A stretch of 64,000 bases of DNA from Escherichia coli. Lineage in GTDB: Bacteria; Pseudomonadota; Gammaproteobacteria; Enterobacterales; Enterobacteriaceae. The stretch lies in NCBI RefSeq assembly GCF_024223415.1, contig NZ_CP100500.1; one strand, given 5' to 3'. Under the pieces are notes generated by a model. It was given only the letters and a program-made list of their open reading frames with translations. It ran no database searches and was not told the origin of the DNA. Below, in pieces: positions 23,038-24,049 of the stretch. The position numbers and the translations under genes are program-made. The stretch's first letter is position 1. Every line of letters starts with the position of its first letter.

Positions 23038-23054
23038 TTAAGATTATTCCGCTG

Positions 23055-23096
23055 GCGGGTCGATTTATTTACGTAAATCGGCCCGCTTTCTTTTTA
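23055..23096 (+). terminator. rho-independent terminator of speA
   Basis: Hairpin gcgggtcgatttatttacgtaaatcggcccgc followed by ttctttttat. Confidence 0.6.
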
Positions 23097-23182
23097 TATA
23101 TTCTTAAAAATAATTTAGCTGCTTTTCTTATTAAATAATCTCCCTACAATCGCTGCATTAATTAAATGCAGAGGGAACGGTT

Positions 23183-23914
23183 ATGAAAAAATGGAAAGTA
23201 CGTAGCGCGTTGGTGGCATTAATCGTGCTGCTGGCCGGTTGTTCCAGTAATGCGCAGTATAATAGCAGTGCATCGGGCAATGTCGGCACCGCCTGGGGTG
23301 GGGATGTGCACTCAACGGTTCAGGGCGTATCTGCTGAGCGAGCCTGGCGCGATCCGGCGGAGATGATCGTTATTAGTTATTCGACTAATGTTCCTTCCGG
23401 CTACGACCGCGTTTATAGCATTCGTATTAACGAACTGGAATATGCTATTCGCGATAGTAATTTTAATTCTCTACCTATTACGCGTGTTTATGATTCATCC
23501 AATAATGAACCACGCTATATTGTCCATGCCAGAGTCGGAATGAATTATCAATTATATGTCCGTAATTACAGTCGTAACACCAACTACGAGATCGTTGCTA
23601 CGGTTGATGGCCTGGATGTGCTGAACGGCAAGCAAGGTTCGCTGAATAACAACGGCTATATTGTGAATGCCGGAGATTCTTTAGCGATTAAAGGATTCCG
23701 CAAAGATAAACATACCGAAGCGGCTTTTCAGTTCGCCAACGTTGTTGATTCCTACGCAGCCAATTCGGCGCAAGGCGATGTGCGTAATACCGGGGTAATC
23801 GGCTTTGCCGCCTTTGAATTACAAGGCCCGGCGCAAAACGCGCTGCCGCCGTGCTCTGGACAAGCTTTTCCGGCAGATAACAATGGCTATGCGCCGCCAC
23901 CGTGTCGGAAATAG
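23183..23914 (+). CDS. predicted lipoprotein of unknown function (243 aa) inserted between speA and speB
   Basis: Signal peptide with lipobox LLAGC; Asn/Ser/Tyr-rich, AT-rich coding sequence; no family recognised. Confidence 0.6.
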   Translation: MKKWKVRSALVALIVLLAGCSSNAQYNSSASGNVGTAWGGDVHSTVQGVSAERAWRDPAEMIVISYSTNVPSGYDRVYSIRINELEYAIRDSNFNSLPITRVYDSSNNEPRYIVHARVGMNYQLYVRNYSRNTNYEIVATVDGLDVLNGKQGSLNNNGYIVNAGDSLAIKGFRKDKHTEAAFQFANVVDSYAANSAQGDVRNTGVIGFAAFELQGPAQNALPPCSGQAFPADNNGYAPPPCRK

Positions 23915-23981
23915 CAACCTCGCTTGATGCCTCGCCCATTTAAGGCGATAATTAGCACAAACTTGTGTTTCGCAAATCCAA

Positions 23982-24021
23982 CCCTTCCTCGTCGGGCCTA
24001 ACGACGCGGAAGGGTTTTTTT
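23982..24021 (+). terminator. predicted rho-independent terminator after the lipoprotein gene, upstream of speB
   Basis: Nested hairpin cccttcctcgtcgggcctaacgacgcggaaggg followed by ttttttt. Confidence 0.55.
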
Positions 24022-24049
24022 ATATCGACTTTGTAATAGGAGTCCATCC

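Follow-up and report, generated by a model that had tools for sequence, protein, structure and literature searches.

The speA–speB junction of this Escherichia coli strain raises the question of whether the predicted lipoprotein gene lying there is a recent insertion that changed the expression of speB, as an earlier note had proposed, or an old part of the locus. The window is the whole stretch of DNA analysed, 64,000 nt in length. The speA–speB spacing was 1012 nt in this strain and 137 nt in K-12-type genomes; the same 137 bp is given for MG1655 (PMC8674398). K-12, for which the earlier note had given a short spacer, lacks 875 nt of the interval and does not carry the gene. The features of the locus are given below, with the speA start placed at an ATG 12 nt downstream of the TTG at which the listed open reading frame begins.

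21061–23037, plus strand: speA, biosynthetic arginine decarboxylase, 658 aa (open reading frame; speA annotation in matching RefSeq records)
23054–23096, plus strand: intrinsic terminator of speA, 5′ end of the lipoprotein cassette (15-bp stem, 4-nt loop, TTCTTTTTAT tail)
23145–23150, plus strand: candidate −10 TACAAT of the lipoprotein gene’s own putative promoter (T-A-(C)...T invariant in a four-genus alignment, recognisable in 13 loci)
23170–23176, plus strand: ribosome-binding site AGAGGGA, 6 nt before the ATG (GGGA/AGGG block conserved in all gene-bearing genera)
23183–23914, plus strand: lipoprotein gene, 243 aa, orthologue of Sakai ECs_3813 / NP_311840.1 (open reading frame, RefSeq ‘lipoprotein’ annotation, conservation)
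23240–23242, plus strand: codon of the predicted lipidated Cys20, following a signal peptide of residues 1–19, with Ser at +2
Within the lipoprotein: beta-sandwich core, residues ~34–213; C-terminal FPAD..YAPPP motif between Cys224 and Cys241
23924–23952, plus strand: speB promoter-like site, −35 TTGATG, 17-nt spacer, −10 GATAAT (sigma-70 scan; putative promoter)
23980–24021, plus strand: conserved hairpin and U-tract before speB, inside the predicted speB leader (fold, conservation, Term-seq)
24050–24970, plus strand: speB, agmatinase, 306 aa (open reading frame; speB annotation in matching records)

The lipoprotein open reading frame starts MKKWKVRSALVALIVLLAGC, and its lipobox, L-A-G-C at residues 17–20, ends at Cys20. 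The n-region MKKWKVR holds three basic residues and is followed by the hydrophobic stretch SALVALIVLLAG, as in a signal peptide; in the AF2 model residues 3–18 formed a helix. The lipobox fitted the [LVI][ASTVI][GAS]C pattern, and at least 90% of the 58 diverse homologues retained Cys20. The mature part was rich in Asn (10.8%), Ser (9.4%), and Tyr (6.3%), with further cysteines at residues 224 and 241, in line with the earlier description. The same description called the gene AT-rich, which held in part: its GC content (48.8%, GC3 47.5%) was below that of speA and speB (54–55%, GC3 61–62%), and on these values it is only moderately AT-rich.

No recognised family emerged for the protein, as the earlier note had also found. 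In Pfam the best match was DUF7537 (E = 0.15), confined to the signal peptide region, and the 58 family members gave no family at E ≤ 0.001. NCBIfam scores were far under the cut-offs, and the sole weak matches were lipoprotein signal peptides (residues 2–46 and 1–20, aligned with the N-terminal ends of the ActS and LptM profiles). PADLOC returned no match for the lipoprotein, a PDB search with the family profile gave nothing at E ≤ 10, and Foldseek against AFDB50 found only same-family ‘lipoprotein’ entries. The family itself was large, with 2859 cluster representatives at E ≤ 1e-3, and W38, Y122, E136, D142, D145, Y159, and Y191 were invariant or nearly so among the homologues. Structure prediction with AF2 gave a confident beta-sandwich (mean pLDDT 89.7). 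Fungal DUF7918-type proteins may resemble it, as AlphaFold models, in the beta-sandwich fold alone, at 12–18% sequence identity; they are eukaryotic, are not lipoproteins, and themselves have no assigned function, and the DUF7918 Pfam profile matched none of the 58 family members. MATH/TRAF-like and Ig-like binding domains scored in the range of any beta-sandwich and had no motifs in common with the protein, and these scores are not evidence of homology.

Where Asp is absent at +2, lipoproteins are sorted to the outer membrane by the Lol system. The protein would be exported by Sec, lipidated at Cys20, and sorted by Lol to the outer membrane, the last because its +2 residue is Ser and not Asp. 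In the periplasm it is predicted to fold as a single beta-sandwich, with the Pro-rich FPAD..YAPPP tail closed by a Cys224–Cys241 disulfide. The most likely role, judged from the modelled fold and the absent catalytic-family match, would be non-enzymatic binding or scaffolding in the cell envelope. A faint Rap1a match and, in Variovorax, a SUFU-domain neighbour had suggested an immunity protein, an idea discarded as too weakly supported.

The gene showed dN/dS values of 0.13 against O157, 0.06–0.07 against three other Escherichia species, and 0.08–0.13 against Salmonella, Klebsiella, and Kluyvera. By this substitution pattern it is a real gene, as the earlier note had supposed, and under purifying selection. 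Searches found no transcript, proteomic, or localisation data on the gene, which counts against the account preferred below. A chance or decaying open reading frame might be suspected from the missing family name, the lack of literature, and the truncated copies in Shigella. The low dN/dS, the size of the family, the confident structure model, and the conserved lipobox and ribosome-binding site leave this reading almost no probability. In sequence records it is an ordinary annotated hypothetical gene. ECs_3813 of O157:H7 Sakai is the same gene at the same speA–speB site, with 98.6–98.8% DNA identity and allelic differences only; UniProt counterparts are named ‘Lipoprotein’ or ‘Outer membrane lipoprotein’ (e.g., A0A1Q4PKQ4) with no function attached, and the exact protein of the window is recorded on at least 1000 contigs.

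Comparison of the junction across E. coli showed the gene in 3556 of 5426 complete genomes (65%), at 96.7–100% identity. Its position was unchanged in E. albertii, E. whittamii, Escherichia sp. E1V33, and MOD1-EC7003, and E. fergusonii had it as well; every Escherichia species sampled thus carried the gene, and its dS against the other Escherichia species tested was 0.30–0.37. Because of this divergence and the purifying selection, the gene is, on sequence comparison, ancestral in Escherichia and appears to have been lost by the K-12 lineage. The earlier note had named carriage by K-12 and most E. coli as the finding that would count against its reading; most E. coli do carry the gene, and K-12 does not. 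Beyond the genus, the gene was the next one after speA in Salmonella, the Citrobacter freundii group, and some Klebsiella and Kluyvera. The order metK-yqgB-speA-lipoprotein gene-speB was complete in Klebsiella and Citrobacter, and in the Salmonella loci other genes followed the lipoprotein gene. Protein identity was 74% to Salmonella and Citrobacter and 60–66% to Klebsiella and Kluyvera. Genomes that matched the hairpin before speB and lacked the gene at this place included K. pneumoniae, K. oxytoca, K. michiganensis, Raoultella, most Kluyvera, C. amalonaticus, Pluralibacter, and Pantoea. As the gene is patchy outside Escherichia, its deeper ancestry could reflect repeated loss or repeated transfer. 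Other homologues were found within the his operon (hisD-X-hisC, with X the homologue) in Comamonadaceae and beside recO or a GntR-type regulator, and across taxa (his operon, recO/GntR, and the ynfC/ynfD region in Trabulsiella) the neighbourhoods showed no recurrent partner.

The short allele was found in 1865 genomes, K-12 and a T7 Express strain among them, and was essentially one sequence (98.5–100% identical). From this alignment the short allele is derived and homogeneous. The 60 nt after the K-12 speA stop (GTCCTGTGTTACTTGAATCCGCTTAATTTAGCGGTGATAATCCGCCACAATTTATTGTGA) matched the 60 nt that follow the lipoprotein stop in this strain at only ~72% identity, while the flanks differed by 2–3%. 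A segment so divergent between such similar flanks indicates that the short allele did not arise simply by a recent deletion from the long allele seen today. The K-12 speB differed by ~3%, with no foreign block in the flanks, and since the proteins are identical all of its differences are synonymous.

Two strong hairpin/T-run elements flank the gene, as the earlier note had seen. The speA hairpin (23054–23087) with its T-rich tail had a folding energy of −23.4 kcal/mol (z = −5.3, 0 of 200 shuffles as good). Its stem was held by compensatory changes in Salmonella, Klebsiella, Citrobacter, Kluyvera, and Intestinirhabdus, and K-12-type genomes lack it. The speB-proximal hairpin (23980–24016, arms 23980–23994 and 24002–24016) with its T-run at 24015–24021 had an energy of −24.4 kcal/mol (z = −5.2). 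Both have the make-up of intrinsic terminators, a stable stem and a U-tract, with covariation in both stems; in the speB-proximal element this was a T:A to A:T exchange at the stem base among 64 sequences, and the ~20 nt before the stem were not conserved in this set. The earlier note had taken the downstream hairpin as the gene’s own terminator. However, it is identical in K-12, 30–70 nt upstream of speB, and its 23-nt core was exact in 65 species, with or without the gene, out to Pantoea and Erwinia and always 58–214 nt upstream of speB. This survey was an exact 23-mer search, blind to genera differing by one base, e.g., Salmonella, the Enterobacter cloacae group, and Serratia. The Pantoea and Erwinia loci included cases without a speA match upstream; in Erwinia sp. 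S63, the one examined, a gene for an HlyD-type protein lay upstream of the hairpin. The speB-proximal hairpin is a terminator shared by the genes upstream of it, the lipoprotein gene here and speA in K-12. Published Term-seq data for MG1655 place an RNA 3′ end in the U-tract, 30 nt upstream of speB, which corresponds to 24019–24020 here. Read-through from speA to speB was thus not newly broken in this strain.

An own promoter for speB, which the earlier note had also proposed, gained support from the promoter-like site TTGATG-17-GATAAT. Among 64 species rows, TTGAnn-17-(C)GATAAT was common to K-12 and the Enterobacteriaceae, and the Pantoea/Erwinia rows had TTGCAG...GATAAT or CAATAAT at a less uniform distance. 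In these rows the site ended ~25–42 nt before the hairpin core. Given the MG1655 3′ end and the conserved site, the barrier and the speB promoter of K-12 would be no different. Between speA and speB, long and short alleles alike have a terminator hairpin and a promoter-like site, so that the two genes do not have the layout of one operon. Since the hairpin is present in K-12 too, speB was not rewired, and because long and short alleles both retain the promoter-like site, the rewiring of polyamine synthesis claimed earlier for this strain is not upheld. Szumanski and Boyle are said to have described in 1990 an own promoter for speB plus some read-through.

The stem and loop of the speB-proximal hairpin were identical from Escherichia to Pantoea and Erwinia, and the speA terminator of the same genomes drifted freely by compensatory change. 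Like attenuators, which are intrinsic terminators in 5′ leaders, the element at 23980–24021 is a GC-rich hairpin with a U7 tract in leader position, ~28 nt after the conserved −10 and 29 nt before the speB start codon. For this element the analysis found neither an antiterminator pairing nor a leader peptide nor an Rfam family, and Rfam over 20200–25200 gave nothing in the speA–speB interval. It is a rather doubtful suggestion, held tentatively, that the hairpin is a sequence-specific regulatory leader that puts speB under conditional termination through an RNA- or DNA-binding factor. If so, the promoter-like site would fire ~20 nt upstream of a terminator, giving a by-product leader RNA of ~60 nt and a possible route for the reported agmatine induction. 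A plain terminator would seldom be so invariant in sequence, and termination, if regulated, would matter for polyamine homeostasis.

The promoter-like leader that the earlier note assigned to the lipoprotein gene stood in part. In the sigma-70 scan nothing in this leader reached the threshold, TACAAT at 23145–23150 included, and the candidate promoter had no good −35, with a semi-conserved CTTTTCT block at ~23122–23128; the T-A...T of the candidate −10 was nevertheless kept across six genera.

These observations are best accounted for, with good though not full confidence, by an old, vertically inherited Escherichia cassette that is independent of the resident speB unit and leaves polyamine synthesis as it was. 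The cassette would extend from 23038 to ~23922, with the speA intrinsic terminator followed by a weak own promoter, the ribosome-binding site, and the lipoprotein gene. It would sit exactly between the speA stop codon and the far more conserved speB unit, made up of the TTGAnn-17-GATAAT promoter-like site, the terminator hairpin, and speB. Lipoprotein transcripts, having no terminator of their own, would end at the resident speB-proximal hairpin, and where the cassette is missing, as in K-12-type strains, speA transcripts would end at the same hairpin. With the hairpin shared, the two allele types would not differ in the promoter or in the leaky terminator on which speB expression depends. The lipoprotein gene would then be an independent passenger at speA–speB. 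The genuine novelty of the long allele at this locus is the dedicated speA terminator and the second transcription unit.

A recent insertion of the cassette in this strain, with the terminators cutting read-through and speB newly dependent on its own promoter, would fit the 875 nt missing from K-12, the lower GC of the gene, and the two hairpins around it. It is very improbable, as the gene is the majority state in E. coli and genus-wide with species-level dS, the downstream hairpin and the speB promoter-like site are unchanged in K-12 and 65 species, and the MG1655 3′ end already maps to that hairpin. The cassette boundaries showed no direct repeats or target-site duplication, 23038–23922 held no mobility genes, and GC content (48.8% versus 54–55%) was the sole feature fitting a horizontal islet. 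A possible, though still unlikely, alternative is that the cassette is not ancestral to Enterobacteriaceae: it would have been inserted once at the speA stop and spread between genera by homologous recombination through the speA/speB flanks, and the K-12 allele would have been imported gene-less and not formed by deletion. The patchiness among genera and the gene-less Pantoea/Erwinia outgroup suit this reading, as do the two recognisable versions of the speB promoter segment in gene-bearing and gene-less loci and the K-12 segment (TTGAATCCG...GATAATCCGCC), which is closer to gene-less genera than the E. coli long allele is. Between the speA stop and the speB promoter, other genera also carry REP-like repeats, an ERIC-like element, and a 1.9-kb insert. 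However, the protein identities (74%; 60–66%) roughly track genus relationships and the K-12 speA and speB flanks are E. coli-like. When the 76 nt upstream of the K-12 hairpin were compared with 70 loci, including 64 of the 65 hairpin-search species, no donor was found, as the best identity was only 75%.

The place of the gene after speA, stable in several genera even without speB next to it, as in Salmonella, could also mean that the lipoprotein acts in polyamine physiology, for example as a periplasmic agmatine/polyamine binder or a SpeA partner, and stays beside speA for that reason. The invariant or near-invariant acidic and aromatic residues would agree with this, and so would a paralogue in Trabulsiella (40% identity) that lies two genes away from a 185-aa acetyltransferase, in a neighbourhood of ynfC/ynfB type; by the K-12 map this acetyltransferase may be speG. 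Such a role is improbable, as the conserved terminator insulates the gene from speA and it has a putative promoter of its own, homologues lie in the his operon, beside recO, or beside a GntR-type regulator, speA and speB occur without the gene in a third of E. coli and in many genera, and the protein resembled PotD/PotF-type binding proteins neither in sequence nor in fold.

With the passenger cassette as the preferred account, the gene is one that the laboratory strain lacks and that is annotated in thousands of genomes, and the wiring of speB is unchanged. K-12 is the exception at speA–speB, and in pathogenic and commensal E. coli an extra terminator and an extra transcription unit should be expected there. 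The family of ~2,900 representatives has no Pfam entry or solved structure, so that finding a phenotype or determining a structure would close a gap in the understanding of the cell envelope. The lipoprotein may prove to be the first member studied in an envelope family that lacks a Pfam entry and occurs in many proteobacterial lineages.

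The earlier note described a gap of about 1 kb between speA and speB, occupied by a lipoprotein gene absent from K-12, and this was correct. In K-12-type genomes the gap is only 137 nt, the figure also given for K-12 in PMC8674398.

Layout of the speA–speB junction (window positions)
21061-23037, speA, the gene 5' of the lipoprotein ORF
23054-23096, speA-proximal hairpin with T-rich tail, 15-bp stem, directly 3' of the speA stop
23145-23150, conserved TACAAT in the AT-rich leader of the lipoprotein gene, with no good −35
23183-23914, plus strand, lipoprotein ORF of 243 aa, the single long ORF between speA and speB
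23924-23952, speB promoter-like site TTGAnn-17-GATAAT, from the sigma-70 scan
23980-24021, speB-proximal hairpin with U7 tract, in front of speB
24050-24970, speB, the gene 3' of the second hairpin

Both hairpins folded about 5 standard deviations better than shuffled sequence. The GC content of the lipoprotein gene was 48.8%, compared with 54-55% in its neighbours. Every factual detail of the earlier observation (243-aa ORF, lipobox, Asn/Ser/Tyr-rich composition, two C-terminal Cys, hairpins) was confirmed. Its interpretation held in part. The gene, the lack of it in K-12 and a separate speB promoter stand; the insertion and the rewiring of speB fall.

The hairpin 3' of the gene had been read as the gene's own terminator, but it is identical in K-12 and always lies upstream of speB. 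When one genome per species was searched for exact copies of its 23-nt core (stem plus loop), 65 species had it, from Escherichia, Klebsiella, Raoultella, Citrobacter, Kluyvera, Pluralibacter, Trabulsiella, Yokenella, Pseudocitrobacter, Enterobacter spp., Pantoea, and Erwinia. The core was 58-214 nt upstream of the speB start in all of them, independent of the preceding gene (lipoprotein, speA or neither); in Erwinia sp. S63, an HlyD-type gene precedes the hairpin. The TTGAnn-17-GATAAT site 5' of the hairpin was conserved across the Enterobacteriaceae rows of this set, and in the Pantoea/Erwinia rows it read TTGCAG...GATAAT or CAATAAT. At the stem base, a clean T:A to A:T swap was seen among 64 sequences. 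An MG1655 RNA 3' end of the 'orphan' class was mapped 30 nt 5' of speB (Adams et al. 2021, PMC7815308, supplementary Term-seq tables), and this position falls within the U-tract of the hairpin. Because of its conservation upstream of speB, the stem swap and the MG1655 3' end, the hairpin is a working terminator belonging to the speB unit.

Transcripts of speA in K-12 would end at this hairpin. Lipoprotein transcripts in the window would end there too, because no further terminator was found between 23914 and 23980. The proposal that the terminators break speA–speB read-through and rewire speB fails, because the same barrier and the same promoter occur in strains lacking the gene. The separate speB promoter was borne out as a conserved promoter-like site, present with or without the gene.

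The cassette carrying the gene starts at the base next to the speA stop codon, where TAATTAAGA(G/T)TATTCC is common to most gene-bearing genera, and ends about 9 nt past the lipoprotein stop, just 5' of the speB promoter-like −35. It holds, in order, the speA terminator, the AT-rich leader with TACAAT, a conserved GGGA ribosome-binding site and the ORF. Of the promoter-like leader that had been claimed, the conserved TACAAT was upheld; we infer the gene's own promoter from conservation, since the sigma-70 scan of the leader gave no site above threshold. The speA-proximal hairpin is part of the cassette: it is missing in K-12, and compensatory changes preserve its stem among the genera that have the gene (GGGTCGA/TCGACCC, GGGCCGG/CCGGCCC, ATGACCGA/TCGGTCAT); such drift is ordinary terminator evolution. 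Upstream, the same tables of Adams et al. 2021 also show a strong Term-seq 3' end with a 'uORF' flag at MG1655 3085854, 57 nt into speA, which suggests premature termination at the speA start (about window 21000-21200); a speA 5' UTR reporter was cloned in that study.

No flanking repeats or mobility genes were found at the cassette. In gene-less genera, the slot from the speA stop to the speB promoter was empty or contained REP-like repeats or other inserts; this slot tolerates insertions. Its variability across genera was seen in loci L015, L017, L018, L038, L040, L054, L056, L058, L069, L076, L007 (4740-4870) and L065. Empty slots measured 64-83 nt in total. Others contained up to three palindromic repeats (at least one), REP-like or of another GC-rich kind, and Yokenella had a spacer of 1955 nt. 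Between the speB −10 and the hairpin, Citrobacter freundii and C. gillenii carry an ERIC-like element some 130 nt long.

The gene had been taken as an insertion in this strain, but megablast found it in 3556 of 5426 complete E. coli genomes (96.7-100% identity), labelled 'lipoprotein', 'membrane protein' or 'hypothetical protein'; the O157 Sakai copy is ECs_3813. It occupied the same site in E. albertii, E. whittamii, Escherichia sp. E1V33, and MOD1-EC7003, and the protein's 90% cluster has a recorded member from E. fergusonii. Compared with other Escherichia species, the window allele gave dS of 0.30-0.37 and dN/dS of 0.06-0.07; such dS would be expected for a gene inherited since the species split. 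The order metK-yqgB-speA-X-speB (X, the lipoprotein gene) was kept in Klebsiella and Citrobacter freundii. In Salmonella the gene is also directly 3' of speA, but other genes follow instead of speB. Prevalence in E. coli, the shared site, dS and gene order point to the long form as ancestral within Escherichia and the K-12 form as derived. Outside Escherichia the distribution was patchy, and many genera and the Pantoea/Erwinia outgroup lacked the gene at this site. The family ancestor may have carried the cassette, with many later losses, or the cassette may have recombined between genera through the conserved flanks. The gene is already known in databases, with the identical protein on at least 1000 contigs, and its absence from the laboratory strain is an ordinary finding. 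A literature search found no study of the lipoprotein.

The short junction was present in 1865 genomes, K-12 derivatives and a T7 Express strain among them, as nearly one sequence (98.5-100% identical). The 60-76 nt next to its speA stop and a stretch of the same length 3' of the lipoprotein stop in the window were homologous, and both segments contain the speB promoter-like site. These segments were only ~72% identical (~28% diverged; K-12-type locus L001 1639-1698 vs window 23915-23975), while speA and speB differed by 2-3%. The K-12 segment (TTGAATCCG...GATAATCCGCC) was nearer to the version of gene-less genera than the long-allele segment was, and no donor was found among the species compared (best match 75%). 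The segment divergence against such similar flanks, with no donor, shows that the short allele did not arise by simple, recent deletion from the long allele as it is now.

At its N-terminus, MKKWKVRSALVALIVLLAGC, the protein has a classic lipoprotein signal peptide, in which the lipobox is L-A-G-C and the +2 residue is Ser. Asn, Ser and Tyr are fairly abundant in the mature protein, and Cys224 and Cys241 are near the C-terminus; export, lipidation, sorting and a disulfide are predicted from sequence rules. The family comprised 286 clusters at 90% identity in one database (E ≤ 1e-3) and 2859 representatives at 50% identity in another, ranging over Enterobacterales, Acinetobacter, Pseudomonas, Kingella, Moraxella, Ralstonia, Comamonadaceae, Paracoccus, and myxobacteria. 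All members were named lipoprotein, outer membrane lipoprotein or uncharacterised. Pfam, NCBIfam, PADLOC and PDB sequence searches returned no relative, and by sequence criteria the protein falls in the lipoprotein class and in no named domain family. A 58-member alignment showed conserved LGTxWGE, YEIVATVDGLDV, GFRK, AAFRF, SYAAN, NxGVIG, and C-terminal AFPAD..YAPPP blocks. AlphaFold2 on this alignment gave a confident all-beta model (mean pLDDT 89.7, pTM 0.78) in which residues 34-213 contain 13 strands; confidence was lower for the linker that follows the lipid anchor and for the C-terminal tail.

Sequence and structure searches pointed to no catalytic family, and neighbourhoods outside Enterobacteriaceae (his operon, recO, or GntR-type regulator) were unrelated to polyamines. 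Because of both results, a modest statement of mechanism is made. The protein is most likely a periplasmic beta-sandwich anchored in the outer membrane, probably with a role in binding or scaffolding; it would be made from its own weak promoter and would not be functionally tied to speA or speB. The order hisD-X-hisC occurred in three Comamonadaceae-type loci (L009, L012, L080, ~5001-5831 in each), two of them in Acidovorax and Variovorax and one on a metagenome contig related to these; here, for a second time, a family member is placed within a biosynthetic gene cluster. The ORF 3' of this copy is small (115-129 aa), with a faint Rap1a hit in one locus, and a SUFU-domain ORF comes after it in Variovorax. 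In Trabulsiella guamensis a paralogue of 40% identity is found elsewhere (L010 5001-5759), flanked by DUF1161 and UPF0257 genes, with the gene for a 185-aa acetyltransferase two genes away; we take this locus to be the ynfD-ynfC-speG region. The speA–speB junction of T. guamensis (L052) lacks the gene.

Downstream of speB, by about 150 nt, the window carries two IS3-family ORFs (25120-26477; OrfA-like 176 aa, OrfB-like 240 aa; NCBIfam transpos_IS3 at 300 bits). The next gene after speB in K-12 and O157 is loiP, and the window diverges from both reference loci from about 1100 nt past the hairpin. Just 3' of the speB stop (24961-25041), Rfam gave a match below threshold (37.7 bits against a gathering score of 59.5) to the REP-derived nucleoid-associated RNA naRNA4; it is probably a REP-type palindrome. 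The closest genome, SCU-316 (NZ_CP054371.1 3847774-3849850), matched window 22900-24200 at 100% identity in two pieces with an IS1 transposase annotated beneath, and has an IS1 insertion in this interval. In strain A30, the lipoprotein gene is split into two places.

The speB upstream unit (window 23924-24049; L001 1650-1775; loci L013-L077) was far more conserved than neighbouring non-coding DNA. It consists of TTGAnn-17-GATAAT, about 28 variable nt, and the hairpin with its U-tract about 30 nt before the start codon; it gave no match to an Rfam family. It is this sequence-invariant promoter-terminator-speB arrangement, and not the point made in the earlier note, that is worth pursuing. It may be a regulated leader, an idea supported so far by conservation and one mapped 3' end, and the unit could act as a regulated attenuator or as the source of a short leader RNA.
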